The notes under the pieces were generated by a model. That model saw only the letters and a list, made by a program, of their open reading frames with translations. It did no database searches and had not been told where the DNA came from. The translations under genes and the position numbers were made by a program. A DNA stretch of 64,000 nt from NCBI GenBank assembly GCA_002269645.1, contig NIVC01001674.1, forward strand, positions 95,520-159,519, given 5' to 3'. Below, piece by piece: positions 2,237-37,136 of the stretch (within the stretch, counting starts at the first letter, position 1; each line of letters begins with the position of its first letter). Source of the DNA: Macrostomum lignano (lineage: Eukaryota).

Positions 2237-3771
2237 AACGCAAATAAAAATGGAATATGGAGGACTAAATAAGCAACATCGGTTCAATTTCGATTTCAAA
2301 AATAGCAGCAGACTAAGTTGCTGTGTGCCAACTTGGTAGACAAATGACAAAAAATTCATGTAATGGCGTGGGCTCACAGCTTCTTCATAAGTTATTAACA
2401 GCTTATTCCTTTAAATTTTCTTGGACACATTATAAACCAATCGTTTATCATGCATAGCCCACCTGGGTGGTTATAATATGTTTCAATACAGTTTTTATTG
2501 CAAACCCGAAGGACATTCTTTTTTATAATCATTGTTATTGAAAACTATAATTTGCGTCCAGGTGGGAAATTACGAGTAATCAGTTTTAACAAAAATAAAT
2601 ATATACTTTTCTCTGAACTAAACAGCAATTAAAATTTAAACAATCTGGTGTATTAAATACGCTGAATTTATAAAATTAAAAATATCAATGCGATCGAATT
2701 TCCGGCTCTGGCGCAAATTTAAATTAATTAAATATTGTTCTGATCGTTAATGAGTTCTACACGTTTAAACACAGCTAATGTACCGCCTGCAACCGCCAAA
2801 TTTATTTATTTTCGATCAGATTTGATGTCAGATCAAATTTGCATGACGTTAAAGCCAGTTTTTTACTGGTCGACCGAATACTTTGGTAAATTACGCATTC
2901 TCGTTCCTGTCTCAGAGAGCTATCGACATCGGCTGTGGCCTTTTCGCCTAGTTCTTGGATAAGCCGTGTAGGTCAGCTTTTTGGAACGTAGAGAGAGAAT
3001 TTGAATCTGCCATATCAGACCCACAAATATATCTATTTTATTACATTCCATAATCAAATCTAATAAACGACTGAGCACAAGGCATTTCAAAAAAACCCCA
3101 ACATATTTATTACATGTCGATCAAAAAGCGTATGAAGAGCATTCTCGACGTTTGTTTAAACGTTAAGAAATATACTGTCACTTTTGAAACAATTTAAACC
3201 AAAAAACTTGGAACATTTGTTAAATTTCTGAGTTTATCATTGCACTTCATCATATGCTCTTATTTTTTGGCACGTCTGACATTTTTAATCTCTGAAATTT
3301 TGACATGTCAGAACATTTTTGGCATGTTCGACATTTTGGCCACATGCAGAAAAGGCTCTGCTTTATCTGCAGTCTTCTCACTTCCTCGACAATTGCTCCT
3401 CTTCTACCTCAATCCTCAATAACATAAAACCCAATCAAACAGAATTTTATGTTGCAGTTGCTAATCCAGTGGCCGGGTTAGAATTGGTTTTCTTCCACTC
3501 ATCTTTTTTGCGTACAACAAAACGAACGATCGCATTGTGCGCATGTCCCACCCACTGCCAAGCCTCTCTGTGAGTTGCCGTTGCTTAGGAAACGGCAGAT
3601 CCAGTGAGTAGCGGACTGGAGCGGATCTCTGTATTGAAAAAACCACGGCAGTGCATTTGCTGAAATTCGGCAGTGCACTGTTACTGCGGCTGCTCACATG
3701 CGCTCGTGCAATGGCAGCTTTTTTTATTGCATTCGCCATCTGCACATGGGCCATCCAGCCTCCTGCCAGAA

Positions 3772-4017
<246 letters not shown>

Positions 4018-4339
4018 TGTACTCCTGCGTCTATATCGTACATGGAAGTGTTTCTGTGAATCAGTATGCCTTCTGCTGCCGTCCTGTCCTTGTCTATGTT
4101 GCCATTGTTTTGATAGTTCGAAGATCCTCTGATAATCTTCTTAATTGGCAGATTAAACTGCAGATTCAGCCCTTCCATGATTTGGTTGCATGATTGCTGC
4201 ACATTTTTGCAATGCTGTTGGCAATTCTTGGAAGGTGGATTCGTGGACCTTATTGAAGGCCTTTCGTACTCCTCATTCCAGCTAAATGAATTCTTTGAGC
4301 GTAAAGAGGTCTTAGCGTTGAGGTACATTCCGCGATCGA

Positions 4340-6966: not shown

Positions 6967-7279
6967 CCCGCATAGCAAAATTACGTAATCCAATAGAAAG
7001 TGCGACGTCTCGGATACGTAACTTTTTGTTTGCAGGAACGTCCTTGATACGGATCCAATTTTTATGATCCTCTAAAGAAGCTGGTTTCTACCAAAATGGT
7101 GGAATAAATAATCAATAAAATTACAAGCATTATCTGTTCACCGTTTTTGTAGAAACGATAGAGCTTCTTTAGAGGATCATAAAAATTGGATACGTATCAA
7201 GGAGTCGTTCCTGCAACCAAAAAAGTTACGTATTGGAGACGTCCCACTTTCTATTGGATACGCAATTTTGCTATGCGGG
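6967..7279. mobile_element. Foldback/MITE-like long inverted repeat, ~150-bp arms with a short loop
   Basis: Left arm CCCGCATAGCAAAATT...GATCCTCTAAAGAAGCT is the near-exact reverse complement of right arm AGCTTCTTTAGAGGATC...AATTTTGCTATGCGGG. Confidence 0.85.
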
Positions 7280-10680: not shown

Positions 10681-11808
10681 TCATTTGTTTTCAGACAACG
10701 ATTCTGACAGAGACTTATCGGCTCCGACGAATGGACACCGATTACCCTGTTCCCGGCGCCAATCAATCATTTTGATAGATTCATACTTCTTGCGAGCGCA
10801 GGCTTTGGGGTCGAAGAAGAGTGGTCCACGGTGTTGCCGCAAGCTTCTTTGACTGTCGCCAGTGTAATAAAGTTTCGCAGCTTGTCCCAAGAGTCGCTCA
10901 TTGGCACTGGTACCCACTGGCGGCAGCATCCAGCGTAGCTTCGTTCTTACCTCGAGCGTGTCATTGAGCTGACCGCCGATTTTTTGCTGCGAGCGCATTG
11001 TCACGTAGTAGGATTCGACAATCGCTTCTAAAAAAACGAAAGTTTCCATAATTACAAAGTATTAAAATTCTGCATACCTAAAACTTTTCAGACTAGCTCA
11101 TGCTCACCTGTGCCGCCGCGGTGAAGAGCAAAGTCGAGCAACAGACACGTGGCTTGACCAGCGCGGGAATAAACCCGAGGGTCCTTGTAAAAAGCCGCGT
11201 ATACTGCTGACTCGTTAAGCGTGGCGCAGACAGACTCGCCTGGCTCTGTAGTCAGTCGCAGTCGAAGCGCCAGATCGCCTGACTTGCGGGGTTCCGCAGA
11301 GACCTTAATAATGCGACCCTGTACAGCAGGTGTGAGCCAGTTATCTCGGCCGTCGCCTGAGATGAATGCCTCATGAATAGTCGTGATAAAAGCCTCCAAA
11401 TACTTCCGTGATAGGGACGACTTCACGTGCGGTGCGAGATGCTCGTGCTTTTCAGCAAGGCGGACGAGGTGCTTCATCTCAACGGCATGAGTTGCATTCT
11501 CGACTGCCTCTTCGATGTCCTCGGCAGTCAACAGGCTAACGGCAGATGCTGCATCCAGGACAATTGACGGATCCCTGACGCAGCATTTCTCCAATCGCGC
11601 AAGAAAGGAGCGGTGCAGGCTTGAAGCCAACTGGACTAGGTCCTGGAGAGAATTATAAATATATATAAGTGCGTTAATACACTAATCATGACATGACAGA
11701 AGTTTATACTTTTACACAGTAGCGGTGCTAAAACTCAGAGTTAAAAATTACCTGCTCCATATCCTGGGACTCTCGGAGTTGCCAGTCGACCCTGCTGCTT
11801 GGCCTACC
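10681..11808 (-). pseudogene. hAT transposase, 3' exons (11808-11752, 11642-11108, 11027-10681)
   Basis: Splicing yields HRGGT-EAIVESYYVTM...LNDTLEVR, matching the hAT C-terminal SSAxxERxFSxM dimerisation/catalytic-E region; introns of 109 and 80 nt. Confidence 0.82.
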
Positions 11809-11813
11809 GGTGC

Positions 11814-12685
11814 TATAGCGCTTCAAGTTTATGTCTCTTCTTCTTCACTTGTAGTTTTCCTATAGTTTGTCTAGCGGTTTATTGCAGTCTAAAAGTCTTG
11901 AAGGCTATAACTCCTAACGACTATCGAAGCTCAGTATTTTGGCTGGTCGTAGTGATCTCTCTAGATCGTTATCGCTGATCCTACTTGAGAAAGAACACAA
12001 ACACAATGATTTTCTAGTTTATCTAAACGGAACTCGAAGTGAGTCTATAATTAACCGGAGCGGTGAATCTTTTTCCGCGCTCCGCTCCGATATATATAGT
12101 GTTTTTAAAACCCCTCGATCCGAGGGGGAGATAATACCATAGCAACAGTACGCATGGGAATTTGGGGTGAGTGAGGTCGCAGCCTCGAGTCTAGTACAGT
12201 TATTGTCATTAAACTAGTTGGTTGGCAGGCACGCCAACCCCTTTCCTTTCATCGATCCCGCCTTCTTGTGCGGACTCGGCCTCCTCTCGATCTCGTTCCC
12301 GATCGGGTCCGGGCGGCTCCAGTTTCTGCTGGGTTGGGTCGATGCAGGCAGCTGCAGGTCGGGGTAGGCCGGGTTGATTCCGGGAGCTCCATGTCAGCAC
12401 AGCTGCGTTCCGGTCTCGGGCCATTCCACGTCAGCACAGCTGCGGATCCGGTCTCCAGCAGCTCCACGTCAGCGCCTCTGCGGATCCGGTCTCGGCCAGC
12501 TCCACGTTGGCACAGCTGCTGTCATGCCGAACCGGGCCTGCGCTGAAATGAATAGTTGATCTCTGGGGGCAGATTTTGTCTAATCATTCTCCTTTCGGTT
12601 GCTCGCACCTTCTGCTGTTGCTATTTTTAGTTTTAGTTACCAACTAATGCTCACTTAAATTCCATTCAGATTTCTAAGTCTTATA
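11814..12685 (-). repeat. 3' LTR (872 bp, termini TATA...TATA)
   Basis: 8 substitutions versus 23939-24810 by manual alignment. Confidence 0.96.
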
Positions 12686-12699
12686 TCATCCCCCTTTTG
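12686..12699 (-). promoter_or_regulatory. Polypurine tract
   Basis: AAAAGGGGGATGA immediately precedes the 3' LTR on the minus strand. Confidence 0.8.
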
Positions 12700-12869
12700 A
12701 AGAAATCCTTGACTGGTCAAGGGAGGTGTAGCCTATTGTCTTAATCGAGCTGCTAATCGGCTTACTACTAGTAGATCTGTGAACATATAAGACGTTTGAA
12801 ATCTGATACTTGATGAAAACGAAATCAATAAATGTGTTTGACCTGCACCGTAGATAAATATAGTTTTAC

Positions 12870-13211
12870 TTATAAATTATAGACGTGCGGGTGGTAACCA
12901 TCCAGTAGTGGCACCTGGTATTTGTCCCGGTAATGACGCCAGAAACAATCAATGGTGGGCCACTTCCTGGTGGCGGGCTCGGGCCGATACGTGGTCTCTG
13001 GTGGCCACGTGCCTTGTACTTGTCTTGTGGGGTAAAAATCCTCTAGGTAGCATTCTCGCAGGTCGGTTGTCGACGTGGCGACCGTCAGGCCGCCATCAAT
13101 CTCCTCCTCGGCCACCTGAGTGCTCGCGTCGGCCTTCAGGACCGGCCGCCCCCGGATGTCCACGTCAACAAACTTCTGGCCGGGGCGGCGGTCGTAGTCT
13201 CGGTTGGCCAT
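12870..13211 (-). CDS. Small accessory ORF of LTR element, ~113 aa
   Basis: ATG (MANRD) ORF in a GC-rich island just before the PPT. Confidence 0.45.
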   Translation of the reverse strand: MANRDYDRRPGQKFVDVDIRGRPVLKADASTQVAEEEIDGGLTVATSTTDLRECYLEDFYPTRQVQGTWPPETTYRPEPATRKWPTIDCFWRHYRDKYQVPLLDGYHPHVYNL

Positions 13212-13481
13212 CGCGCTGGAAAGGTTGTCCAATATAGGTGGCTTTCCTAGGCGTTTTTCTTTTATTCCTTAGGTTATTCTCCAGGTCTTCCTCGAATTGC
13301 TAAACTGTCTACTGTTAGTGAGTCTGTGAATATATAAAACGGTGAAATCTGAGATTGATCCCGTTATTTAATCCCTACTGGATATGATATATTAGTGTAA
13401 TTAATAAACATGGCCAGTTAGTTTTTTTTTCATTATTTAAGCGTCCTGTATGCTGCGCCAGGCTTCAACTTGATATTGGAG

Positions 13482-13742
13482 TCAGTTGCGCCACCAGGCC
13501 AGTCGCCCCGACGCCCAAGCCTTGGCTTGGCGAGCGGCGCTACGGATGACGCATTTCATCCAATAGCCCCGACGCCTTGTGGCCGATGGTGTGTCGTCGG
13601 GCCAACTTTCCTCCACGAACCTCTCCAGCTCCATTAATATTCCCACCAGCCGGACCCACCTGCGGTTGTTCATCTCCGTCTGGTGGATGACGGACTGTTG
13701 AGTTCGCATGGTCCCGATGAGTGGGATGTTGACTGTGTTCAT
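13482..13742 (-). CDS. Small accessory ORF of LTR element, 86 aa
   Basis: ATG ORF in a GC-rich island between AT-rich spacers; preceded by TTTCTAG. Confidence 0.4.
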   Translation of the reverse strand: MNTVNIPLIGTMRTQQSVIHQTEMNNRRWVRLVGILMELERFVEESWPDDTPSATRRRGYWMKCVIRSAARQAKAWASGRLAWWRN

Positions 13743-14432
13743 TGCTAGAAATTTGGATAATGTTTCGGATTCCAGTTTGAATGTTATATTTTTGTCTTTT
13801 AATCCTACGTTCTCTGTGGCATACTTGTTGCTACTACCTATCTATTGTGATTGATGTTTAAGTTCAATTGAAATGAAGTTAAACAGAGATAAGTTATGAG
13901 ATTTTCCAAAAAACCGAAACCAAAATACGATGTATTGATTGCGAATATACGTTCCTTGAGATCTCAAGTGAGTAATAACATTTCTGGGACTCTCAGGACA
14001 ATAACATGACTTAATTCATAGTGTTGTAATGGTTATAGCAGTGTGTCATGTGGTTGTGATTTGCTGGTGCTAGTACGTGTCGTAGTGAATAAACGTGTCG
14101 GAATGAATAATGAATTTGCATATAATAAATACGTGTGCCTCATCATGGAATTCGGTGAAGCCTTGTCTTTGCCTTTCTTCGCTATTCTAAGCTTGAGTTC
14201 ACATTGATTGATGGGCCTGGCTTTCCCTAGTTCACTGGTCCGATTGTTCGAGATGTGAATCACCTCCCAACTTTCTTTTAGTGAACTGGGTTCTGCTTTA
14301 AGGATTGCACATTGAGTGAGAGTGCCACAAGGATAGGACGTCCAATCGAATCGTCTTTTCTGTCCTATCGTTGCGTCAGTGTCTCAGCTCTCGTGTCTCC
14401 TTATGCCCCTAACACTTCCGGTCCCTAAGTTC

Positions 14433-15197
14433 CTACTGAGAAGCGGTGGCTTGCGAAGCTTCCAGTGCCATTTTTAGTTGTGGCCACTGGAGCAGCGCCG
14501 GTGAATAAGTGTGGATTACTCGCTTCTCTGCTTCCTGGTTGCTGATACGAATTCCATGATAATTCAACGCTTTACACAGATGCTTGGATAACGTGGTGCA
14601 TATCGCATTGGGTGGTGGGCCCCACGGATGGATCAGATTGACAGCTAGATTATGGCAGAGAACCTTGACTATGACACAGGTAAAAGCGTCTTGTTCCCCG
14701 TAGTGAAAGAAAATTGTTGTTCGGTTACGGAGGATGTTATAGTCCGAGAGGAGCCAGAGTGGGTTATTTTCGTCGGCCAGGATGCGCGCTGTTGTTAGGT
14801 GCGTCACTACATTGGCTGGGATTCGTGGCGCATCCAGCATGTCCAGGTGAATGTCAAATAGTTTCATCTCACCATGCCGATTAGGCTTGCTCTGGATGGA
14901 CTGTCTGTCCATAAGGTTGTGTAGCATCATGAAGGACAGATCTTTTTCTTCCCGTCTGTAGCTCTCTCTCATTACTGTTGGGCACAGCGATCGTCCGTGT
15001 CTAGATCTTCTGATCTCCCATTGGGTTTGGAGATGTCGCCGTTGCTGTTCGGTGGCGGCGCTGTTCCTAATGTTCATCTCCTTCCCGACTGCCGTGCTTG
15101 GTTCTGCCGACGCAAACAATGGCTTGACCAATGTGTAGGTCGTAAGCGGCTCATCGATGGCGCAATCATCCACTGTGTCTAGCTCCGTCGAATACAT
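14433..15197 (-). CDS. Accessory ORF of LTR element, 254 aa, unknown function
   Basis: Uninterrupted ATG ORF between pol and the 3' LTR, bounded by AT-rich spacers. Confidence 0.6.
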   Translation of the reverse strand: MYSTELDTVDDCAIDEPLTTYTLVKPLFASAEPSTAVGKEMNIRNSAATEQQRRHLQTQWEIRRSRHGRSLCPTVMRESYRREEKDLSFMMLHNLMDRQSIQSKPNRHGEMKLFDIHLDMLDAPRIPANVVTHLTTARILADENNPLWLLSDYNILRNRTTIFFHYGEQDAFTCVIVKVLCHNLAVNLIHPWGPPPNAICTTLSKHLCKALNYHGIRISNQEAEKRVIHTYSPALLQWPQLKMALEASQATASQ

Positions 15198-15366
15198 CTG
15201 ATTGTTCGAGGGTGGGTTGAATATTTGTGGGTGAATAAATGGTGACTAGTGATGCAGAGTAATATAAAATATATAATTCTAAATATCAGAGCGCACACCA
15301 ACAAGGAAATAAATAGTTAAAATGTAAGATTGTCCGTCTACTTCCTCCCTTCCTTGACCTCAGCTG

Positions 15367-18300
15367 TCAAGGAAGTTTCACTTTGTTCCTCAGATTGTAT
15401 TTCTTCCGAGCCGTGTCCGCCTGCGCGTCCAGCTCCTCTGCCTGCACGCTCACTTCCTTAGTGAATCGCTGCCTTGGCTGTCGCTGGTGGCGCTGTGGGT
15501 CGCTCGGTCTGAGGTCAGGAAGCATCACATGTGGTGTTGACGTGGCCATTGGTTTCAGCCTGTCGGTGTGCTGAAAGGACTCCTGATTTGGGTCGTCAAT
15601 TTTCCGGATTGTGACTGAAGTCTGGCTGCTCCTCTTCACAATCTCATAGGGTCCTGTAAATTTTGCCTGGTGCTTTCCCTGTCTCATGGGGATCTGTAGC
15701 ATAACTCTACTGCCTACTTCCAATGTAGTCAGCTTGCGATTAGCATTAGCTTTTCCGGTATTCTTCTCTTGAGCTATCTGCAGGTGATGTCTCGCTATTT
15801 CCCTGGCTAGTACGACGGCTTCTTTCATCCTGGCTGCGAATGATGGCTCGTCCATGTACTTTACCAAGTTCAACTGAGTCGTGAGTTGAGTGGGCATCAG
15901 AGGTCTCCGGGCAAAGACTAACTCGAATGGAGAGTAGGTCGACGATGCTTGCTTTGCTGTGTTGTAGGCGAACATCGTTGCCTGCAGGTACTTGTGCCAC
16001 TGGTCCGGATTCTCGGCTGTGTAGTGGCGTAACATGTTGTGGAGTGTAGAATGCAGTCGTTCCACATGATTCGCTCGAGGGTTATATGGGGATGTCAAGA
16101 TATGTTTGATCCCCAGGATTTCTAAGGCTTCGGCTAGTAGAGTTGCTGTGAAGTTCTTTCCATTGTCCGTGGACATCTCCATCGGGATCCCAAAAGTACA
16201 GAACACTGTGAATAGTGTCTCGGCCGTCGTTTCAGCTGTGAGATCTGGGATCGGAATAGCGAATGCAAATTTCGAAAAACAACAAAGGATTGTGAGAATG
16301 TGTGTTACTGTTTCATTTCTCACTTTAGTGGGCACCATTGGACCCACTATGTCAACCGACAATTTGTCCATTGGTCGCATTGGGACCTCTGAAAACTGGA
16401 TCAGTCCCTTATGGGTTTTTCCTGATTTATTCTTGGCGCACTCTATGCAGTTGTTACAGAATCCTCGGATGTCGGATACCATGGTGATCCAAAAGTAGTG
16501 TCTACGGATTCTCTCCAAGGTTTTCTCAAATCCTAGATGTGCCGCTAATGGCAATGCGTGTAGTGAGTGGCAAATGGTCTCACGATACTGAAACGGTAGG
16601 ATGATCTGCTGTGTTTGATCCGCTGTTCTGTGTAGAACGCCTCCAATCTCCGCGTAGTCCGCCAGGTGTCTATCGATGTGGCGTCTGTACTTCGGAGCCA
16701 GTGATTCTACTGCGGATTCTCCGTTCCACATTGCTCGGATTTGCTGGCAAAATGGGTCTTCCGCCTGGGCGTCCTTAAGTGCTTGCAGGTGTGGGATTGG
16801 ATGCGATATTGTAACATAATTGATTTGTTCCATTGGTTTCTCGTCGTATAATCTCGAGAGTGCGTCCGGTACTGCATGCGTGACTGATGCTCCAGGTACA
16901 TATTTGATCTGTATCTGAAATTGCTGTAAGTATAGTAACCAACGCAAAATTTGGTTGTTCTGCAGTATTCTGCCTGTGAGTAAGCCTCTGAGTGGGGCGT
17001 GATCTACTCTCAGTAGTGTAGGTATGGGAGCAGCGTATAAGAACTGTTCGAAGTTTCTGAATGCATGGTAGACTGCTAGAAGTTCGAGATGAGTGATTCC
17101 GTACCTCGTTTCTGCATCTCTGAGTTGTCTACTCGTGAATGCTATCGGTCTCTCCCGTCCCATCTCATCTTTCTGCGAAAGCATCGCTCCTATTCCTTTA
17201 GTTGAGGCGTCACTCGAGACTATGAACTGTTTGTTGAAATCCGGATGTGCTAGCCTGAGATCCTCGGCTATCCATTTCTTCATGGCCTCGAAAGTGTAGT
17301 CCGCTTCCTCGGTCCACTTTAGGTTGGTCTTCGTTGCTTGTCCTTTTGAGGTCGGTGCCCCTTTGAGCATATCCGTTAGCGGTTGTACTTTCTTAGCATA
17401 ATGTGGGACATGCTTCCTAAAGAAATTACACAGTCCGAGGAATGCTCTTAACTGAGTCACATTATCAGGTTTGGTTACCTTCTGTACCTTGTCCACTAGA
17501 GTGCGGTCTATCTGGATGCCGTTCTGGTCGATCTTGTGTCCCAGGAAGGTAATGCTGGGTTGCGCGAATCGACATTTCTGGAGTTTCAGCTTTAATCCGT
17601 GCTTTTTCAAGGCTTCCAAGGTACTTTTGAGTGTCTTGAGGTGGTGCTCGAACGTTTCCGTGAATACTAGCAAATCGTCCACGTATGTAGAGACTCTCTC
17701 GATACCTTTGAGGATGATGCTGGCAGCCCTAGACAAAGCGGCCGGGCTCGACTGTAATCCCATCGGCGCCCTTAAGAAGACTAGAGTTTCTCCGTCCGGT
17801 GTAGAAATTCCGCAGTACTTTCTACTGTCCTCGTGCAGGGCCACTTGAAAGAATGCCTGGGCCATGTCTAGAGTCGTGAAGTACTTTGATCCTTTGAGTT
17901 TGGCCAGCAGATCTGGAATTCTGGGCATACACTGTCTCTCGGGGACCAACAACCGGTTTAAGTCCCTGAAGTCCACGCACAGGCGATACACCGGTTTGGC
18001 GTCTGGCAACTCCGATTTTTTCTTAACGAGGAGAATTGGTGAAATGTACGGTGTCGGTGCTTTCATGAGAATCCCCTGCATCTCCATTCTGTCTATCACC
18101 TTCTTCAGTTCTCCTGTAAGCTGGTGTGGAATCGGATATCTCTTATTCAGCTTCACTTCCACATTCGGTTTTATGTGGAGTTCGTGTTTCGCTATTTCTG
18201 TAAAGCCTATCTCATCATCTGAGAGACAAAATGCTTCCTTGTTCTCCCAGAGGATCTCTCTTAGTCGTTCTTTCTGCTCTGCTGTTATCTCGGCTCCCTG

Positions 18301-19554
18301 CAGATTAATCGCTTCTCTAAATTCTGTCTCTTTCATTGCCGGTGCCTGTTCCTGATTCACCGCTATTTCATATGTCTCTATCTCTGTCTCATACGAACCT
18401 ATGGCTGTATCCGGGTACAGGGTGATAGGTCTGGCTGATTCGTTAGATATGAGAACGTGTATCTCTCCCTTCTCGTCCGGATGAACTATCTCCTGAGTCA
18501 GACCTATCGCCTTCTTCTCGACGATACTCCTGTCTGGCTCGAAAAGTACCGTGTCAGGCAATTCCTCCTTTGAGTCGGTTCTAGCTGTAATTTGAGCTGT
18601 TTCCCATGGATTCAGGTTTACCACGGAAACTAGTCTGATCTTATTTGTGGCTTCTTGGGCGGCGACGGTCATGATTTCATACGATCTGCCATTTAACTGC
18701 ATCTGTTGCTGTTGGTAATTGATAGACATTCCCTCCTGCAACTGACTTAGGTAATCAATTCCCAGGAGTGCATGGTATCTCCCAGAGCTCAAGTTAGGAA
18801 TGACATGAAACTTAACGTTGACGATTGCGTTTCCTGCTTCGACTGGTAACGTGATCATTCCGGATTGCGTGAGCTTTCCTCCGTGTACTCCTTGTAGCTC
18901 TGTCGTCGGCTTCTCGAAGCTGTCACTGTATCGGCGCGCCGTCGCTTCGTCTATCAGCGACCTCTCTGCTCCGCTGTCTATCAGCGCTCTACCGACTCGC
19001 GTGCCTATCTTCAGTCGCGTCACCGTGTACTTCTGGCCATTCGTAATTGCTGCCACTATCGGCGGTGGCCATGAGCTGATCGTCGGATAGATTGATGAAG
19101 CCAGTGGAGCAGACGGAATCATCGGTTGATGCTGTTCCGTATTTGTGGCTGGTGCCTCTGGTGCTGGGCGGCGTGGGCCCGTGTGTCTGTAGCTAGTGTC
19201 CGTGCTTGGCTGTACTAACAATTCGTGTTGTTCTCGCGTCGCCTTTATCCGTCTTTGAATGGCCCGAATTCCTGGTCGCTCGTACTTTTTCCGATAGAGC
19301 CTGTGACAAACTATTATGGTTTTGAGTATGATGTAGAAGTATACACAGAGAGCGGCAGCTCCAACGGCTATGTTGAAAATATTGAGTTTTATGCCTATCC
19401 ACGGCATCCAAGATGCGAAGTCATAAGTTTTGAGGGCTATGTTTGCTTCCAATGGTGGGAGGTCGAGCGTCTGTGAAGTCTTCTGCTTTGGTAGTTTAAA
19501 TACCGTTCTCAGAAATTCTCTCTGGTCCTTCATCTGCGTGTACAGATCGTGCAC
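15367..19554 (-). CDS. pol: Env TM/tail fused to Pol (protease, RT, RNase H, integrase with GPY/F)
   Basis: TM IFNIAVGAAALCVYFYIILKTIIVC followed by HRLYRKK; PR LIDSGA; RT TYVDD; RNase H SDAS/ELLAV/VDH; IN HHCC plus VDIVG/TDNG/VER; FTGPY. Confidence 0.95.
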   Translation of the reverse strand: MHDLYTQMKDQREFLRTVFKLPKQKTSQTLDLPPLEANIALKTYDFASWMPWIGIKLNIFNIAVGAAALCVYFYIILKTIIVCHRLYRKKYERPGIRAIQRRIKATREQHELLVQPSTDTSYRHTGPRRPAPEAPATNTEQHQPMIPSAPLASSIYPTISSWPPPIVAAITNGQKYTVTRLKIGTRVGRALIDSGAERSLIDEATARRYSDSFEKPTTELQGVHGGKLTQSGMITLPVEAGNAIVNVKFHVIPNLSSGRYHALLGIDYLSQLQEGMSINYQQQQMQLNGRSYEIMTVAAQEATNKIRLVSVVNLNPWETAQITARTDSKEELPDTVLFEPDRSIVEKKAIGLTQEIVHPDEKGEIHVLISNESARPITLYPDTAIGSYETEIETYEIAVNQEQAPAMKETEFREAINLQGAEITAEQKERLREILWENKEAFCLSDDEIGFTEIAKHELHIKPNVEVKLNKRYPIPHQLTGELKKVIDRMEMQGILMKAPTPYISPILLVKKKSELPDAKPVYRLCVDFRDLNRLLVPERQCMPRIPDLLAKLKGSKYFTTLDMAQAFFQVALHEDSRKYCGISTPDGETLVFLRAPMGLQSSPAALSRAASIILKGIERVSTYVDDLLVFTETFEHHLKTLKSTLEALKKHGLKLKLQKCRFAQPSITFLGHKIDQNGIQIDRTLVDKVQKVTKPDNVTQLRAFLGLCNFFRKHVPHYAKKVQPLTDMLKGAPTSKGQATKTNLKWTEEADYTFEAMKKWIAEDLRLAHPDFNKQFIVSSDASTKGIGAMLSQKDEMGRERPIAFTSRQLRDAETRYGITHLELLAVYHAFRNFEQFLYAAPIPTLLRVDHAPLRGLLTGRILQNNQILRWLLYLQQFQIQIKYVPGASVTHAVPDALSRLYDEKPMEQINYVTISHPIPHLQALKDAQAEDPFCQQIRAMWNGESAVESLAPKYRRHIDRHLADYAEIGGVLHRTADQTQQIILPFQYRETICHSLHALPLAAHLGFEKTLERIRRHYFWITMVSDIRGFCNNCIECAKNKSGKTHKGLIQFSEVPMRPMDKLSVDIVGPMVPTKVRNETVTHILTILCCFSKFAFAIPIPDLTAETTAETLFTVFCTFGIPMEMSTDNGKNFTATLLAEALEILGIKHILTSPYNPRANHVERLHSTLHNMLRHYTAENPDQWHKYLQATMFAYNTAKQASSTYSPFELVFARRPLMPTQLTTQLNLVKYMDEPSFAARMKEAVVLAREIARHHLQIAQEKNTGKANANRKLTTLEVGSRVMLQIPMRQGKHQAKFTGPYEIVKRSSQTSVTIRKIDDPNQESFQHTDRLKPMATSTPHVMLPDLRPSDPQRHQRQPRQRFTKEVSVQAEELDAQADTARKKYNLRNKVKLP

Positions 19555-19566
19555 TGTAATTGGCCT

Positions 19567-21102
19567 TCAGATTTCTTCTATTTTAATATCAGTTTCTGGT
19601 GTAAAGATAATCCGTTTGATATTAGGTAATTTCATAGCCTCTATTCCCCAATCTTCGTTCTTCAATTTCTTTACCTGTATAAGTTCGAAGCTGGTGAAAT
19701 TTGAGTCGACCTTGTACACTTTGTCCTCTTTGGGTAACAGGTATCCAGTTCGATTCGAGCAGTCCTGAAAGGTGGGGTGCTCGGTCTCAATTTCCATAGT
19801 TCTTACGTCCAAAAATCCTGTACGGTTGGTTTCCGCTACTTTGTACTTCAACGGAGGTTTGGAGAAACATCGGCTTTGATTCCAGTGTGGTTGATGGAAT
19901 TCGAAGTCGGTCACTGGGATGCATTTGAAGATTACGACATGCTGAGCTATCGTTCTGGCCTTGAGGTTCTTGTCTTTGAACAGTGTCCTCACCGCTAGTG
20001 TTGGTTGCATCCTTATGAAGTCTTTAATGTATCTAAAAATGGTCTGTTGGAGTCGGCATTGTTGAAGGATTACATGACGAGTCAGATCACCAATTCTGTT
20101 TTCCATTGTAAGTTCAACACTCTGTAATTTCGCTGCTAGAGTTTCCTGTGATACCAAGTCTCTCTTTGTCCTCTTTGCTGTGCTAGAGTTATTAAAATTA
20201 CCTTGTACTATCGATAAGAATTCTGCTTCGGATCCTTCTAGTTTAACCAACTTTCCTTGTTCTGACCTGAATAGTTTAGTTGTCGTTCCTCCGCATTTCA
20301 GCTCCATTGAGTGTGGTGGGTGTTTAAAAGTCAAAGCGTAGGTAGCGTCCTTGGACATGAACCATCCTGTGTGTATGGTTCCTTCAATTCGCCTGTCTTC
20401 CTGGTACGGGCAGTCAATTGCAGCGCTGGGTGTCCAGGCATATCTGTACTGGCGTTCTCCAGCGACCTTGAATGTTGTGTCGTAGTATCTCAGAGCTTCC
20501 CATAATTTATTGGGTACTTGTCTCTCCAACGGCGCATCCTTCTCGGCCTGTAGAGTGGACTCGTGAAGACATTTTCCTATGGTGTAATTGCAATGTCCTA
20601 GTGGGATATATAGTGATGACATTTTCTTATTCTCCACGAAGAACGGAATTTTCGTTATCAGCGTGGACGCTGATTTCGTATATCTAGTTTGGGTACTAGC
20701 CGTTGGGTCGAATTCCTCTGTTGTCCAGATGTGAGTAGTAAAGCGTTCAGCTTTGTTCGGGGCTTTCCCATCTTCTTCGAGGATGCCATCTGGTGTTCGG
20801 TAACCTTCCTCCCAGGACTCACAATCTTCCTCTGAAACTAGATGTTTCTGTACCGTAACAGTCATTTCTGGTCTTACCACTTTGGCAGCAATCGTTTTCA
20901 GTGCTACGCTGGTGAAGACATACGTTTCTCGGTAACAGATCTTGAGTGTTGATCGGTGAGTGACCTGGTTTGGTCTAAAGATTGTCAGGTTGATCGGCTG
21001 TCGGTGCTGCTGTATACTGCTAGGCATCTTGCACTCGATGTCCGGTGGCAGCTTGAAGATCTGTGGCCTGGAGGGCTCCGGGCAGTACATCGGTGTGTCC
21101 AC
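19567..21102 (-). CDS. env: Env ectodomain segment, class III (herpes gB / chuvirus G-like) fusogen
   Basis: Cys-rich with multiple N-x-S/T sequons and furin site RTKR (20172-20161). QPTLAVRTLFKDKNLKARTIAQHVVIFKCIPV and CFSKP...GFL...MEI...QDC parallel HSV-1 gB [31 protein letters not shown] and CYSRP...GQL...NEL...EPC (recalled). Confidence 0.8.
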   Translation of the reverse strand: MDTPMYCPEPSRPQIFKLPPDIECKMPSSIQQHRQPINLTIFRPNQVTHRSTLKICYRETYVFTSVALKTIAAKVVRPEMTVTVQKHLVSEEDCESWEEGYRTPDGILEEDGKAPNKAERFTTHIWTTEEFDPTASTQTRYTKSASTLITKIPFFVENKKMSSLYIPLGHCNYTIGKCLHESTLQAEKDAPLERQVPNKLWEALRYYDTTFKVAGERQYRYAWTPSAAIDCPYQEDRRIEGTIHTGWFMSKDATYALTFKHPPHSMELKCGGTTTKLFRSEQGKLVKLEGSEAEFLSIVQGNFNNSSTAKRTKRDLVSQETLAAKLQSVELTMENRIGDLTRHVILQQCRLQQTIFRYIKDFIRMQPTLAVRTLFKDKNLKARTIAQHVVIFKCIPVTDFEFHQPHWNQSRCFSKPPLKYKVAETNRTGFLDVRTMEIETEHPTFQDCSNRTGYLLPKEDKVYKVDSNFTSFELIQVKKLKNEDWGIEAMKLPNIKRIIFTPETDIKIEEI

Positions 21103-22725
21103 TCAGTTCTGGTGTCTTGGGTTTATCGTCTCCGCCGTGGTACAGAGCAATGCGAAGAGTAGTATTTTCAGCAGGAGTGCGCATGTCGGTCCGGCTGGGG
21201 CCTTCCAGCCTTCGCTAGCCTGTTTAGCCCTCTGCTCTCGCTTTCGTCCTTCGAGCTGTTGAGCGGTCTGAACTAGGGCGATTGTCGCCGTCTTGTTCTT
21301 CCTGTTCTGTCGTCTTGCCTGTATGACGTCGCTCCTCGCCCGTGTCGGCGTTGTCGCTTCCATCGTGCTAATTGCCATGATGTGCGCTGACTGGCTGGGC
21401 TCAATCGCCAATTGAGCTGGCTGCGGACTGGGGTCCTGGGCCGTGACTTCGGCGATCCGCTTTGGCTGCTGCCATTGCTGCGGATACCGTCCTTGATCAC
21501 CCTGGCGTGGTCGGCCGCATTCCGATGTCCAATGGTTCTGCATGTTACAGTTCTTGCAATATCGCTGGCCTCTGCACTCCTTTGCAATGTGGCCTCTCTT
21601 TCCGCATTTGTTGCACTTAACGTTACCTCGATCTTGTCTGCCCTGTGACTGCACTTGGCCCCCGGTACTCTTACCGATGTTCCGGTTACCGATGTTCCGG
21701 TTCCTTTGGTAGCACCTGTTGGCTGTGTGGCCTATCTTGTCACAGAGTTGGCATGTCGGCCTTGGGTTGCCGTCTGGGTACTTGGTTGCGGCTTCCTTCT
21801 GTGGCTGTTGAGCTCGATCTTGGGTGCGCCGGTCCGCTTGCCTGATTGTCGTCTCCATCTGTGCTACCATGGCTGTCAGCTTGCGTACGTCGTTGGAGTC
21901 GTGTTCCAGCTCTCGCAGTGCTTGCCATTGAAGTGCTTCACGCACCATCTCCGGGACCGTCTGGTAACGTCCTCTGGCTAGATATAGTCGCAATGCCGGT
22001 GTGGCATTCTGTTGCGCGTGCAGCATGATGTGGTCTTGGACTATGCGTTTGTTGCGGTTGATTCTTGCGCCTCTGTCGTTCTCATTCTCACCCTCCGGTG
22101 CTGGTTCTTGGAACACTGAGTTCTCGACTAGTTGTGTGATGTCGGCAATGAACTTGTTAACATCCTCTCCTGGATGCATCCTCCTCATGGAGAGTTGGAG
22201 TACTGCCGTGGGTCGATCCATCGCTCTGGTGTCATACAGCTCTCGGAGTTGTGTTCTCACCTGTCCGTAGTCTTCTCGGACAGCTTGTGGGAGTCCCGCG
22301 TATTGATTACGGGCGTTAGGACGCAGCATGAGTGGTAGTAGTCGGCACTTCTCTTCGTCCGTTAGGCCATATGTCGCTGTCTGTAGTTCAAACTCCGTCA
22401 GCCATTTGACAAATGGCTGTCCCATTTCGTAGTCTCCTGCCGACAGTTTTAGAGCCTGGACAATGGCTGGTAGGTCCCTGCCGTGTGCCATGGCGAGACG
22501 CTGCTGTAGTTCTCGGACTTGGTTCTGGAGATCATCCATTGCGTTGTCCTCGTTTTCCGAGTCTGATGAGTGCTCGTTGTTGTCTTCCCACTCGTCGTTG
22601 TGGTCTAGCTGGTCTTCTCGCTGATCTAACTGATCTTGTGGCTGTTGTTGTTGATCAACGTCTCCGGGTTCTGGAGTTCTGTCAGTACCTGTTTGAATGT
22701 CTTGGTTTAGAGCTTCGTTATTCAT
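21103..22725 (-). CDS. gag: Gag segment with three CCHC knuckles, ending in a signal-peptide-like stretch
   Basis: CQLCDKIGHTANRC, CNKCGKRGHIAKEC and CKNCNMQNHWTSEC knuckles; capsid-like KWLTEFELQTATYGL; first ATG at 22725; C-terminal CALLLKILLFALLCTTAET. Confidence 0.92.
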   Translation of the reverse strand: MNNEALNQDIQTGTDRTPEPGDVDQQQQPQDQLDQREDQLDHNDEWEDNNEHSSDSENEDNAMDDLQNQVRELQQRLAMAHGRDLPAIVQALKLSAGDYEMGQPFVKWLTEFELQTATYGLTDEEKCRLLPLMLRPNARNQYAGLPQAVREDYGQVRTQLRELYDTRAMDRPTAVLQLSMRRMHPGEDVNKFIADITQLVENSVFQEPAPEGENENDRGARINRNKRIVQDHIMLHAQQNATPALRLYLARGRYQTVPEMVREALQWQALRELEHDSNDVRKLTAMVAQMETTIRQADRRTQDRAQQPQKEAATKYPDGNPRPTCQLCDKIGHTANRCYQRNRNIGNRNIGKSTGGQVQSQGRQDRGNVKCNKCGKRGHIAKECRGQRYCKNCNMQNHWTSECGRPRQGDQGRYPQQWQQPKRIAEVTAQDPSPQPAQLAIEPSQSAHIMAISTMEATTPTRARSDVIQARRQNRKNKTATIALVQTAQQLEGRKREQRAKQASEGWKAPAGPTCALLLKILLFALLCTTAETINPRHQN

Positions 22726-23923
22726 ATACTGATATTCCGGTCTATTGGTTCTTTGCGGAGTTGGCCGCAAATGATATGAATGTAAGTGATGCGTATTTAA
22801 TCAGCTTGACTTCAACAAAATGTCTTGTCAGTGTGCACTCTGATCTATCTTAAGATCTCACAAAAGTTTAAGTGAAATTCAAATATGAGAAAAGGGGCAG
22901 AGGTATCGGATACGTTTCCGGCCAGGTGGTGCTGTCAATATGTAAATTATCTTGCATTTTGTAAATAAATGAGTGCATTTTTTGTCTCGCTTGTCGTAGA
23001 TATGCGCGAGGCTAAATAATATGGTTGCAGCATTTTATACACATGCACTTTTAGCGACTAAGCATTTTGCTTTCCCTCTTTCTGCCTCATTGGCTAGTTG
23101 GGCTACGCATTTCAATTTTCATTCCGAAATGCCTCGAGGTTGTCTCATGGACTGGCTACCTAGGTTGGGGGCACAAATACTTACCCTAACACGCCTTGTA
23201 GTAGATCAACAGCGCTATGGGCGGGCTGTCGCGTTTGCTGGAGAGCGGAGTCAGATAGACACAGTGTACAGAGCCTAAGTGAGTTCTTCCCCCCTCTGTG
23301 TCCGCGCAGTCCTTAGTGCCAAGAGTATGAACTCCCCTCAGAAGGTCTACTATCCTACTGAGCCTATTGAAGCGCGCTATAATAATGAAAAGCCCTATAC
23401 GGTGTACTTTTTAATGCTGCTATTCGCCTGACAGGTCCTTTACCTGTGATGAGTCGGCCGGCTCCTGCAAACTCCTTTATAGTCTAAAGTTTAATCTGTG
23501 GTAATGTTGGCCAGCGCTGCCTTAATTCTGTTAATGAGTACACCTTTTGTAATAATTCGACTATAGTCCTATTTAAACAACTTCCTGGTAGCCCCTCGCT
23601 ATTGATGTGCGGCCTTGGTGATTTGCTTCACCAGCCGCTAAATATTTCTCTACTAAGGAAAATCATACCGTAACTTTGTACATAACTATTCTACTTTTTT
23701 TTCTTGTTTTTAGAATTCAATCGCATTTTTTTGAGCTTTTTCAATGAGAAACGCACATGTCCTCTTACGACACGATGTATAGTATACTTAGTAAAGAAAC
23801 AATTGTATGACAGCACTCATCCTGGCCTTCCGCGTTCCTTCCTCCACCGTCAGAAATTACTCAGCCATTACTGGTCGATGTCGTCAGGTTGAAAAGTGTA
23901 GACTGCTTAATAGATGACTCGTA

Positions 23924-23936
23924 GGTCTGGGAACCA
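23924..23936 (-). promoter_or_regulatory. Primer-binding site, probably tRNA-Glu
   Basis: TGGTTCCCAGACC lies 2 nt after the 5' LTR; it matches 12/13 the complement of the vertebrate tRNA-Glu 3' end (...GGUCAGGGAACCA, recalled). Confidence 0.7.
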
Positions 23937-23938
23937 CG

Positions 23939-24810
23939 TATAGCGCTTCAAGTTTATGTCTCTTCTTCTTCACTTGTAGTTTTCCTATAGTTTGTCTAGC
24001 GGTTTATTGCAGTCTAAAAGTCTTGAAGGCTATAACTCCTAACGACTATCGAAGCTCAGTATTTCGGCTGGTCGTAGTGATCTCTCTAGATCGTTATCGC
24101 TGATCCTACTTGAGAAAGAACACAAACACAATGATTTTCTAGTTTATCTAAACGGAACTCGAAGTGAGTTTATAACTAACCGGAGCGGTGAATCTTTTTC
24201 CGCGCTCCGCTCCGATATATATAGTGTTTTTAAAACCCCTCGATCCGAGGGGGAGATAATACCATAGCAACAGTACGCATGGGAATTTGGGGTGAGTGAG
24301 GTCGCAGCCTCGAGTCTAGTACAGTTATTGTCATTAAACTAGTTGGTTGGCAGGCACGCCAACCCCTTTCCTTTCATCGATCCCGCCTTCTTGTGCGGAC
24401 TCGGCCTCCTCTCGATCTCGTTCCCGATCGGGTCCGGGCGGCTCCAGTTTCTGCTGGGTTGGGTCGATGCAGGCAGCTGCAGGTCGGGGTAGGCCGGGTT
24501 GATTCCGGGAGCTCCACGTCAGCACAGCTGCGTTCCGGTCTCGGGCCATTCCACGTCAGCACAGCTGCGGATCCGGTCTCCGGCAGCTCCACGTCAGCGC
24601 CTCTGCGGATCCGGTCTCGGCCAGCTCCACGTCGGCACAGCTGCTGTCATGCCGAACCGGGCCTGCGCTGAAATGAATAGTTGATCTCTGGGGGCGGATT
24701 TTGTCTAATCATTCTCCTTTCGGTTGCTCGCACCTTCTGCTGTTGCTATTTTTAGTTTTAGTTACCAACTAACGCTCACTTAAATTCCATTCAGATTTCT
24801 AAGTCTTATA
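23939..24810 (-). repeat. 5' LTR (872 bp)
   Basis: Direct repeat of 11814-12685, followed on the minus strand by the PBS. Confidence 0.96.
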
Positions 24811-27534
24811 GGTGCGTTGGTTGCCTCGAGCGGTCACCGTGGGCTTGTCCGGCAGTACAAGCCATCCGCCCATCAATTCGACCGATTTGAATGAGCCTCC
24901 CGGTTTGATGGACTCATAGAAGGGCTGTAAAAATTGAAGTGAAGTAGGAAAGAAATGAATGCGCAAATTTAAGCCCTTTAAATATAATTTAAGCCCTTAC
25001 ATATAGGCCCAAATCATTTACCTGCAGTCGTGGGTAATCCTCAACTCGGAAAACCTCTGAGCGATCAGCAAAATGCTTCGCTACCCGATCGGCCAGCACG
25101 GAAACCTTCCAGTGAGGCAACTGGAGGTTCTGAGCCACTTCCATCAGGGAGACTAGTGGACCAAAAAGGTCCTGCAGGCACAGCAAGTCAAAAACGAAGT
25201 CGCTTCCGAACATTGCATATTGCGACTCTTCGTCATCAGAGCAGCACGGATTTTCTGCTCGAAATGCGGTGTGCAGAGCGGCGTAACTTGCCTCAATGGC
25301 GGACCACTGTCTAAAAAAAGAAGCGTAGTGGGAGGACATTAAATAAATTTTTATTTACCCTTTTCATCACCATTTTTATTAGACTATTTATTGATAATAG
25401 CTGGTACTTACTTGATTGCAGAGCTCGTGAAACGCTGGGCTGCGAAATGCGACATCGCTCGAGCTGAACCGTCTGACGCCTCTTTCAGTGCTGCCTCACC
25501 ACGACCATGGCTGAAATAGGTAGCAAAAAAATTCGCTCGCTTTATAAACCGGCGCAATGACTCCCCATCAGGTCCATCGCGAACATCAGTGACGGCCAGA
25601 TTCAAGTAGTGTGCCGCATCCCACATCACAGGAATCTTTTCGACGTCATCGACAGGGGCCCCGAGCTCGGTCCGAATAGCGCGGCAGAATGTGCCAGCTT
25701 GGTACTGGCCATCAGCGACGATACCCATGATGCTTGCAGTGGGCGTCTTCAACACCTGATAGATTCAAAATGATGAAATTAAGCACTCGTCTAATTTAAA
25801 GTTTAAAACTGTTAGAATCCCTTCAATCGTCCAAAAAATAATACGTTAGTGACGGTTACCTTAAGTGTCTGCATTAGTCTTTTGGCCAGGGCTTCCCCAT
25901 CTGCTTGCATTGCAGAGTCGTACACAGCAGGTGCACCCGCAGGAATCGCTACGGCTTCGCCATTTTCGCAGCGAGCTAGAAGGAGTGCCGCCTGATTCGT
26001 TGTGCGGCCTGGGGTGCTTTTGTCGCAGGTGATGGTCAGCAGAGGCGGCTGTCCAGTCGAAGGCAGAGGACACCGCAGAAACTCTGCACTTTCGTCGTTT
26101 ACGCAGGCGTCTAATAACTTCCAAAGTTCTTTGCAGAATGCACTGTGTAAGGAGGGAGGGTAGGTGAAATGACAAAGTTATTATTTATTAAGTATATCTG
26201 ATTGCATTTAAATAAAATTATTTATAGTGTATAGATATGTTTGCAGGTAAACTTACAAGCCATGGCCAATCTGACCAACTTCACAATCAGACGCATCGAG
26301 CAGACTCATTAGAGTCTCGTAATGCGAACCCGCAGCAGCCATTTCAATTGTCGCAATAGCACAGCGGAGAAGGGTGCGCACAACCTTGCCTTGTGCCGTC
26401 TGTTGTACGACTTCGGTTCGGTAGTCCTTCACAGCCGAATAGTGGGTCTTGCTTGTCAAACAGTGGTTTACGAGTTCATTGCGAAATTTGGAGAACTCGT
26501 CCACACCACTTAGCAAACCTGCGACTCGTTCGGCTGAAAGTCGTAGCCCTCTGCTGAAGGACTTATTCTTTTCAGTGGTGGTGGGGTTCCTGGAAAAGTG
26601 AAAAGCTCGGTACATTAACACCTTAAGTACTTCTTTAAGACTATCCCGTCTAAACGGACTCTACATACAGTACATATAAAAAACATTCGACTTACAGAAT
26701 GCTGTAGATTTGCTCGGCTGTACAGTTGGTAGGCATCAGTTTCGACTTGCAGAGGAACGTGACACAGGGAACGCAGTTAAAAATCGAGTCACCATTCTCG
26801 CACGACTTGAGCGAACAAAACTCAAACTGCAGTAACTCAGCGAAACTATTTGTGGCCGCCACATCATCGTTGCCGAGGTCGATTTTGGACTTATTTTCTT
26901 GATTGCTGCCCTTACTACATTTAGATGTAGCAACAGCATTGACGGATATATTTTCAAGCAGTTTTTTCATCTGCACAATCTCCTGCGTCTGTGACTCGAA
27001 CGCCTTTTGCAGAGCAGTGATCTTCTTAGCCATGTTTTCTGGAGCTGGTGCTGAATCAACAGCTTCGAGTCGCAACTGTAGACGACACTGCAGGTCTGTC
27101 TGCTGCTGCTGACCGGATGACTGCTGCTGACCGGATGACTGCTGCTGACCGGATGACTGCTGCTGATCGGATGACTGCTGCTGATCGGATGACTGCTGCT
27201 GATCGGATGACTGCTGCTGATCGGATGACTGCTGCTGATCGGATGACTGCTGCTGATCGGATGACTGCTGCTGCTGCTGTTCAGACTGATCAACCTCAGC
27301 ACTCAAGTCGTCCTCTTCGTCTTCCACAGTAGCTACATTTTGCAGGGCACGCTCATTCAACAGCCTTCGAACCTCCTGGTTATCTCTTCGAGCGAAATCA
27401 GGAGGTGCATGTCCAACACCTTTGCGCCCCTGGTGTTGACTCTTACAGTGCCGATTAAGATCATGTGGAAGACCACGGACTGTTCGGCAGTTTCGCAAAT
27501 TTCGACCAGCCCTTTAGCAGGACAAACAGTAGTG
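24811..27534 (-). pseudogene. hAT transposase, 5' exons (~27534-26696, ~26650-26257, 26142-25860, 25755-25412, 25310-25022, 24924-24811)
   Basis: Spliced frame gives LTITCDKST (first D), IVADGQ (second D) and WDAAHYLNLAV (CxxH-equivalent). GT-AG introns are phase-consistent except the first junction, which is uncertain. An N-terminal CLSC...H...H finger carries a premature TAA. Confidence 0.82.
27103..27270 (-). repeat. 18-bp coding tandem repeat x9 (QQQSSD/G) in hAT transposase
   Basis: Direct reading. Confidence 0.95.
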
Positions 27535-36440: not shown

Positions 36441-37136
36441 AAGAAATAACGAGATGAGTCTTAGCCAAATTTAATTTGTTCCACTAAGAGCTTCTCGCAA
36501 ACAGCAAGAACTGTTAAGAGCAAAATTCCAAATAAGAAAAGGTTATTTTATTTTAGAGTTAACCCGGATCCCTTTTATACTAAATTTTTGGGGAAGAAGG
36601 AATACATTAAAACAAAATTAGTGAGTTAAAACAAATTTAGGAAAAATTAAAACAAAAAAGGGATAGCATTTAAACAACTAAATAAATTTTTTGATTGGTT
36701 CAGAAATTGGTTGGCGCTTAATTACTGTTAGTAGTGATTATAGGTTAATTAAATCCTGCCTCAACTGGCTTCCCTTAGTTAAATTTTTGAATAAGATTGA
36801 GTGAAAAAATTTAACATAGTACTGTAAGTAGGATTAAAGGGTAGGTATAAGCATGAGCAGATAATTATGAGCAAAACATATATACATCGAGCATGCGCCT
36901 ATAAGAGTCCCGCCTGGACTTTGGTCCGGTTCTTTCGTCCGCTCACTTATCCGATAGTTCGTCCGGTTGATAATGTATTTTTTCCATAAGGGAAAATCGG
37001 ACAAAGCGGACGAAAAGTTACGAAAGCGGACGAAAACTTCACCTCACGTGACGTTCGTCCGCTCGTTAGTCCGGTGTTTGATCCGTTTATCTGCCGATGC
37101 TTCGTCCGTTTCACTTTAGCACTGACTAAACAAATC

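Follow-up and report, generated by a model that had tools for sequence, protein, structure and literature searches.

A recently inserted, broken copy of a GAG-ENV-POL retrotransposon with a gB-like fusogen, from a family that probably makes one polyprotein

The nematode elements named NERVs by Sacco et al. 2022 (J Gen Virol 103:1739) reportedly have one continuous gag-env-pro-pol open reading frame (ORF), a Nyamiviridae-like env and extra ORFs, and are said to be confined to nematodes. Here we analyse a 13.0-kb long terminal repeat (LTR) element with the same gene order, situated on the minus strand at 11814-24810 of a 64,000-nt stretch of contig NIVC01001674.1 (the window). Among the 1,512 elements listed by Chary and Hayashi (PMC13524379), those of Nematoda, Bryozoa and Platyhelminthes are described, in the available part of that paper, as having only ENV of the HSV/gB type and the order GAG-ENV-POL, and as not being monophyletic. 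The flipped order of ENV and POL is credited there to Sacco et al. 2022, and the mechanism of entry of gB-bearing elements is called unknown. An earlier note on the window had presented the same order as, to its knowledge, undescribed. The architecture is real but known: the element joins the GAG-ENV-POL gB-type group, as a broken copy. We consider it likely that the locus is a recently inserted, broken copy of an env-bearing retrotransposon of the Ty3/gypsy type, whose family makes one polyprotein.

Three stop-to-stop minus-strand frames, 22800-21103, 21102-19567 and 19566-15367, share one reading frame and are separated by single TGA codons, as the earlier note had stated; the outer limits given there, 22770 and 19554, fall a few codons short, which changes nothing. 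From the ATG at 22725 the frame contains 2,452 codons when translated with X at the breaks (codons 541 and 1053), in agreement with the approximately 2,450 claimed. This is far fewer stops than in 200 shuffles of the same DNA (mean 117, minimum 92) or in the other two sense frames, with 148 and 100 stops. The Pfam matches follow in the order CCHC, Monjiviricetes_fusion, RVP, RVT_1, RT_RNaseH, Integrase_H2C2, rve: the first piece of the frame has the CCHC match, the second Monjiviricetes_fusion, and the third protease (PR), reverse transcriptase (RT), RNase H (RH), and the finger and core of integrase (IN). A motif scan confirmed the placement of the CCHC motifs (amino acids (aa) 325, 371 and 390), hydrophobic signal (514-528), RTKR site (852-855), transmembrane segment (TM, 1116-1134) and protease site (1248). 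The pol order PR-RT-RH-IN comes with domains of the Ty3/gypsy type, and no BEL/Pao-specific family is among the Pfam matches. Of ten slippery-type heptamers in the frame, none is situated between the nucleocapsid (NC) and the signal; this count has no control and was given no weight.

Neither the order nor the one-protein form is new, contrary to the earlier note. The order has been described for three phyla (PMC13524379), and single Gag-Env-Pol chains occur in public protein sets. A protein of Caenorhabditis tropicalis has Retrotrans_gag, PF24664, RT and integrase within 2,450 aa, Globodera rostochiensis also has CCHC, fusogen and Pol in one chain, and further named examples are from Macrostomum. 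Among the 150 listed env hits, Pol domains follow env in one predicted protein in 34, CCHC precedes env in 52 and both hold in 16, where some fused proteins may be spliced gene models and a separately encoded env would not appear as fused. Env after RT or integrase was found in none of the 150, and protease-like domains on both sides of env in one. Four public Gag-Env-Pol relatives (P0144, P0145, P0203 and P0224) seemingly contain at least two aspartyl-protease-like domains.

At the level of the family, the likeness to NERVs extends to the reportedly continuous gag-env-pro-pol ORF, whereas the window copy has two stops; the top viral match to the fold of the element's Env is a nyavirus glycoprotein, which agrees with the Nyamiviridae-like env ascribed to NERVs. 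The hosts differ, being reportedly nematodes for NERVs and flatworms for the relatives of the element. With the errantiviruses of PMC13524379 the element shares, as far as the available part of that paper goes, a Ty3/gypsy-type pol, gB-type env, the order GAG-ENV-POL, LTRs, a primer site, multiple copies and flatworm hosts, and in both the gB-type ectodomain lies between a signal (identified in the element by hydrophobicity only) and a TM. The table of that paper has ten bryozoan and nine flatworm elements, one of them from Macrostomum. The primer site of the latter differs from that of the window element, and its env is not among the supplement rows compared; the subfamily of the window is probably a different one, judging by the primer site. 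The words "polyprotein" and "single ORF" have no matches in the available text of PMC13524379, where "ORFs" is used, nor has "polyprotein" in that of the preprint 10.1101/2023.10.26.564294; the available part of PMC13524379 contains neither a processing model nor a 3' accessory cassette. The words "envelope" and "glycoprotein" are absent from the main text of a survey of Macrostomum LTR elements (PMC12801592), whose supplements may bear on this.

The closest named protein, 84% identical over the RT region, carries the label Macrostomum lignano, and the next (38%) is also from Macrostomum; the other 118 listed are 29-36% identical. The host is most likely a Macrostomum flatworm, judging by these identities. 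A quick RT-RH tree was built from 49 of 50 rows (P0188 was dropped for short coverage), with no reference clades or outgroup; the RT of locus L017 is unrelated and was not used as an RT of the family. The genome and Macrostomum rows form one clade (9 rows, SH-aLRT 98). Another clade (12 rows, SH-aLRT 99) contains two named nematode proteins and is not joined to the Macrostomum clade with support. The unresolved backbone between the two fits non-monophyly.

The middle segment is supported as a class III gB-like fusogen, as the earlier note had proposed, by the following evidence. The second piece of the frame matches PF24664 (Monjiviricetes_fusion) with E 4.6e-10. With a profile of the stop-free 511-aa env piece and 15 genome relatives, 409 of 1.84 billion proteins were matched at E<=0.001; this 16-row profile reached herpes gB at E 0.03 only. 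A 69-row profile was needed (the window piece, 9 genome relatives and 59 of the 150 listed hits): it matches gB with a best E of 2.3e-18, and each of the 51 PDB sequences listed goes by the name gB or a synonym of it. The model of Env, folded as a monomer, has a mean pLDDT of 82 and a 47-residue helix directly after a low-confidence loop containing RTKR. In Foldseek, herpes gB comes first against PDB (E 1.9e-19, TM-score 0.48), and glycoproteins of nyavirus, rhabdo-like, entomopox and herpes viruses lead against viral models (best E 2.9e-25). Among proteins of 281-895 aa, a word-indexed search with the 511-aa piece gave no match at E<=0.001, because the relatives are long polyproteins. Herpes gB and the mononegaviral class III glycoproteins of PF24664 share with the element the fold, the long central helix after the furin loop and conserved cysteines; the difference is that identity to gB is 9-13%, and that the ectodomain of the element, of about 580 aa, is made inside a retroelement polyprotein. 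In a distant subfamily (L026:4381-6633, L030:5081-7405) the furin loop of the fusogen carries a Thr-rich mucin-like insertion of about 200 aa.

The frame recurs in related copies. With env as the query, a DNA search of the genome assembly found nine places: besides the window itself, two copies match at 98% and six others at 66%. In a protein search, 69 among 252 candidates were scored. Leaving the window aside, 68 matches remain, of which 56 are stop-free within the match and 13 lie in stop-free frames longer than 2,300 aa, which supplies the uninterrupted siblings that the earlier note had proposed to look for. We fetched 24 loci: the eight found by the DNA search, and 16 chosen so as to cover the subfamilies, several of these for their long frames. 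An env frame is present in 23 of the 24; locus L033 has none of at least 200 aa. In these partly selected loci, CCHC precedes env in the same frame in 13/23, the protease site follows it in 17/23, and both hold in 10/23. Among 17 long env-bearing frames, a motif scan found an R-x-K/R-R furin-type motif and a TM in all 17, and a hydrophobic stretch before env in 16, the remaining frame starting later. In 19 Gag-Env proteins (5 from the genome, 14 public), such a stretch stands at the start of env in 19/19, with a net positive charge before it in 18/19.

By this conserved anatomy of signal, furin site and TM, processing as a membrane-threaded polyprotein, the mode of expression proposed in the earlier note, is well supported as a putative mechanism for the family. 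As assembled, the window copy cannot make the polyprotein. The steps below follow established biology of the endoplasmic reticulum (ER). Gag would be made in the cytosol, and the internal signal after the NC linker would start translocation into the ER. Signal peptidase would cut on the lumenal side and free the N-terminus of the fusogen, while Gag would remain held by the signal anchor until released by the protease. The ectodomain would be glycosylated, trimerise and be cut by furin. Transfer would stop at the TM, so that the tail-PR-RT-RH-IN part would remain cytosolic and attached to the Env tail. Pol would reach the budding site on Env rather than as a Gag-Pol fusion, and be cut free by the element's protease. 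Enveloped particles would then pass from cell to cell, probably from soma to germ line. By inference this resembles the structural polyproteins of flaviviruses, hepaciviruses and alphaviruses in the sequence of capsid, internal signal, lumenal glycoprotein, TM and cytosolic enzymes. These viruses are unrelated and have class II fusogens, whereas the element has a single glycoprotein of class III and is reverse-transcribing. No account of how Gag-Env-Pol polyproteins are cut and sorted was found in the literature, where Sacco 2022 may cover it.

The weakest step is the 1:1:1 ratio of Gag, Env and Pol that the earlier note derived from this scheme. With 15 upstream ATGs in the leader, and accessory ORFs that depend on other RNAs, splicing is quite possible. 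There is a considerable chance, if somewhat below even, that the single frame is real and the products are unequal, with an excess of Gag due to a spliced or early-ended gag RNA or to decay of surplus Pol. Capsids need far more Gag than Pol, and copia and Tf1 are other single-frame LTR elements with Gag excess. The long leader with its upstream ATGs agrees with this, as does the need of ORF2 and ORF4, which follow the pol stop, for their own RNA or initiation; the genomic RNA of Cer1 yields a spliced product, according to the available part of PMC10309623. A programmed frameshift is argued against by the breaks in related copies, which occur at differing sites. No joints between 15911 and 24512 are listed in the contigs of four sequencing runs, although contigs cannot show splicing and the only RNA label among the runs is a guess. 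Unequal production would change the ratio, not the architecture.

Several points weigh against a single membrane-threaded polyprotein of a Ty3/gypsy element with a class III fusogen. The polyprotein is a prediction from sequence, and among the sequencing runs none is recorded as RNA. The upstream ATGs leave initiation of gag uncertain and splicing possible. In the 62% subfamily, three of five copies are broken between NC and the signal, each by a different lesion; these breaks fit errors or decay but could hide separate expression of Gag. The signal was judged by hydrophobicity only, in a scan that picks the most hydrophobic window of a range, without control by shuffling. The Env model has a pTM of only 0.54 and TM-scores to gB of only 0.30-0.48, modest values that would be expected for an elongated monomer with mobile domains. 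Finally, the Ty3/gypsy placement rests on domain order and Pfam. Given these points, a family encoding one Gag-Env-Pol polyprotein is still the reading that we consider likely.

The insertion is genuine and young, because the LTRs are near-identical, empty sites exist in the genome, and both the empty-site joint and a unique stretch of the element are found in sequencing runs. The LTRs differ at 8 of 872 sites, every difference being a transition. The insertion site occurs six times in the genome assembly, once with the full element, once with a single LTR and four times empty. The empty-site joint was seen in contigs of all four sequencing runs, and the unique 1.8-kb stretch matched with no differences in three of the four. 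The LTR ends are TATA...TATA (11814-11817 and 24807-24810) without TG...CA, and are fixed by the GGTGC duplication, which flanks both sides. Ends of the TG...CA type are usual, not universal. The tRNA-end motif matching the primer site is common in the genome assembly, and one such locus is a tRNA-Glu by ARAGORN; there are no exact 16-nt primer-site matches in the assembly outside element copies. No canonical heat-shock element was found in the LTR. The LTRs, the target duplication and the 2.7-kb accessory region 3' of pol were absent from the earlier note. The stretch surrounding the element (10900-11813, 24811-25764) is itself present six times in the genome assembly; its minus-strand frames are broken and transposase-like by eye, with no Pfam match.

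Both stops of the frame are peculiar to the window copy, as lesions or assembly errors rather than regulatory signals. Sense codons occupy the break positions in 7/7 (codon 541) and 8/8 (codon 1053) related loci, both 98% copies included. The breaks in other related copies fall at differing places, and therefore there is no shared frameshift or read-through site; close copies carry scattered single frameshifts. The contigs from the sequencing runs covering env are collapsed copies with 10-20 differences and 2-3x the depth of the unique part. Both TGA positions are outside the 40 of 523 contig-difference rows examined, and in such collapsed contigs the stops are neither confirmed nor refuted.

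It is unlikely, although conceivable, that both stops are assembly errors and that in the animal the frame of this copy is unbroken. The scattered frameshifts in close copies are of the type left by long reads, and the insertion is young. However, both stops are substitutions and not indels, the faultless match of the unique stretch in three runs indicates that the local assembly is accurate, and the transitions between the LTRs indicate that the copy has been mutating. Far less probable is that the TGA codons are programmed read-through sites, setting Gag > Env > Pol. Both codons are TGA and in frame, and the first closely follows the end of Gag and the signal; but the related loci have sense codons at these positions, the second stop falls within the ectodomain, some 60 aa short of the TM, and the 3' context of neither TGA is among the known leaky contexts. 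Least credible of all is a recent insertion of env from a foreign source, or its presence as a nested viral fragment that is in frame by chance, for which the resemblance of env to nyamivirus, chu-like and rhabdo-like glycoproteins could be cited, against the same position and frame of env in subfamilies only 25-30% alike in env, the single RT clade that these form (SH-aLRT 98), and purifying selection. The in-frame env between gag and pol is thus a trait of the family rather than a late arrival.

Selection on the ectodomain is purifying, with 29 synonymous and 9 non-synonymous changes relative to a close copy, a ratio of non-synonymous to synonymous rates (dN/dS) of 0.08; relative to the 62% subfamily, the proportions of non-synonymous (pN) and synonymous (pS) differences are 0.24 and 0.84. 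For aa 61-300 of Gag, dN/dS relative to a close copy is 0.05. Measured to the closest copies, synonymous distance amounts to 0.00-0.10 within 19051-21770 (NC, signal, env, TM and tail), with 0.24 in the linker, and 0.18-0.39 in capsid and pol. Such unevenness may be a sign of recombination between variants. The features of the element are listed in Table 1.

Table 1. Features of the element, in window coordinates
Feature	Position	Strand	Details
5' LTR	23939..24810	-	872 nt; blastn self-match 99.08%, gap-free
3' LTR	11814..12685	-	872 nt; blastn self-match to 5' LTR
Target-site duplication GGTGC	11809..11813, again 24811-24815	+	Empty sites overlap by 5 nt
Primer-binding site	23924..23936	-	12/13 nt complementary to 3' end of host tRNA-Glu(CTC), added CCA counted
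5' leader	22726..23923	-	Long; 15 ATGs between LTR and gag ATG
Gag	21196..22725	-	Capsid-like region, CCHC at 21753-21712, 21615-21574 and 21558-21517, then linker of about 100 aa
Internal signal-peptide-like hydrophobic stretch	21133..21186	-	Like stretch at env start in 19/19 proteins examined
In-frame TGA, codon 541	21103..21105	-	Sense in 7/7 related loci covering the position
Class III gB-like fusogen ectodomain	19390..21129	-	8 N-glycosylation sequons; PF24664, gB profile, model, Foldseek
Furin-type site RTKR	20161..20172	-	Low-confidence loop directly before long central helix
In-frame TGA, codon 1053	19567..19569	-	Sense in 8/8 related loci
Transmembrane anchor, then basic stretch	19318..19389	-	TM at aa 1116-1134
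Cytosolic tail and Pro-rich linker to protease	19051..19317	-	Sequence; in frame with PR
Aspartyl protease (LIDSGA)	18733..19023	-	RVP E 4e-6
Reverse transcriptase (YVDD) and RNase H	16918..18024	-	RVT_1 E 6e-28, RT_RNaseH E 5e-28
Integrase (H2C2 finger, core, C-terminal part), end of long frame	15367..16593	-	Pfam
ORF2, 254 aa	14433..15197	-	28 matches in genome assembly
Possible ORF3, 86 aa	13482..13742	-	No Pfam match
ORF4, 113 aa	12870..13211	-	Conserved in many LTR-element loci; no known family
Polypurine tract	12686..12698	-	Sequence; precedes 3' LTR

The region between pol and the 3' LTR contains a cassette of accessory ORFs, for which no description in such elements was found in the literature. 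ORF2 is 80% and 41% identical in two subfamilies, with dN/dS 0.26 and 0.19. It has no Pfam match, and a word-indexed search with its alignment found nothing; a language-model search gave a weak Peptidase_C48 lead. Its structural model is of low confidence (pLDDT 39). In a wide structure search (VIA) with this model, ranks 1-24 are CE-clan proteases or their kin (best Z 9.1, root-mean-square deviation 3.6 over 144 aa), and in Foldseek with the same model SENP2 comes first (E 7e-4). A Ulp1/SENP-like (CE-clan) fold is probable on the strength of these model matches. In the sequence, His is missing from the expected start of the HW motif, and no Cys precedes the last helix; the one invariant Cys (174) is in a strand. 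Since the catalytic His and Cys seem to be absent, ORF2 may be a pseudo-protease. Ulp1 domains are known from the DNA transposons Ginger1 and Mutator (PMC2836005, available part), and the likeness to these is the transposon-borne Ulp1-type fold proposed for ORF2. The Ulp1 domain of Ginger1, however, is the C-terminal domain of a transposase, whereas ORF2 is a free ORF in an LTR element, seemingly without catalytic residues. Among the matches listed in the literature, none has a Ulp1 domain in an LTR element.

ORF4 has no Pfam match and no atlas hit. It has 36 matches in the genome assembly at E<=1, and since several of these are on contigs without an env match, the cassette may be shared with other LTR families. 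Nothing in the fetched stretches of the closest copy corresponds to the segment 12810-14142, and the LTRs of close copies are only 86% alike, which points to swapping of the accessory region between variants. Locus L034:4115-6669 is a 5'-truncated relative that keeps RNase H and an unbroken ORF2 and has its integrase deleted. In sister copies (L035:79-333 on the minus strand, L036:2556-2816 on the plus strand), there is an antisense ORF of 84-86 aa, absent from the window copy, with 22 matches in the genome assembly at E<=1. It encodes a coiled-coil-like stretch, a Gly-rich stretch, a TM, CC and RRR, and weakly recalls FAST/sORF2 proteins (Orthoreo_P10, E 0.15). Described sORF2s lie in the sense orientation, and a myristoylation motif was the basis for their selection (PMC11952523, available part).

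Elsewhere in the window there are tandem arrays at 3707-4070 (units of 8 nt), 27070-27303 (18), 37135-37439 (61), 40143-40583 (21), 45582-46148 (27) and 57038-57780 (21), and nested inverted repeats at 6988-7259.

We offer tentatively, as a possibility that is rather less likely than not to hold in full, a joint reading in which these elements replicate by a scheme that has yet to be demonstrated for a reverse-transcribing element. In this scheme, Gag would be held at the membrane by a C-terminal signal anchor, and Pol would travel to the site of budding on the cytosolic tail of the fusogen trimer; the trimer could also join the protease monomers. This layout would have arisen separately in flatworm and nematode lineages. 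At the usual place of env, the flatworm lineage would have added a cassette. One of its proteins would have the SUMO/ubiquitin-protease fold but be catalytically dead, possibly serving as a decoy in the face of SUMO-dependent silencing; in sister copies, the cassette would also include a small membrane protein, encoded antisense and FAST-like in its features. The headline layout is not new; the family is still of value for the cutting and sorting of its polyprotein. The probable host is a laboratory flatworm with at least 69 env-bearing genome matches; its RNA and protein could reveal if Pol enters particles by way of Env, and if a fusogen of the gB type can act in the absence of partner glycoproteins. 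Should the Ulp1 fold of the accessory ORF be confirmed, it would be a hint that an LTR element can counter silencing.

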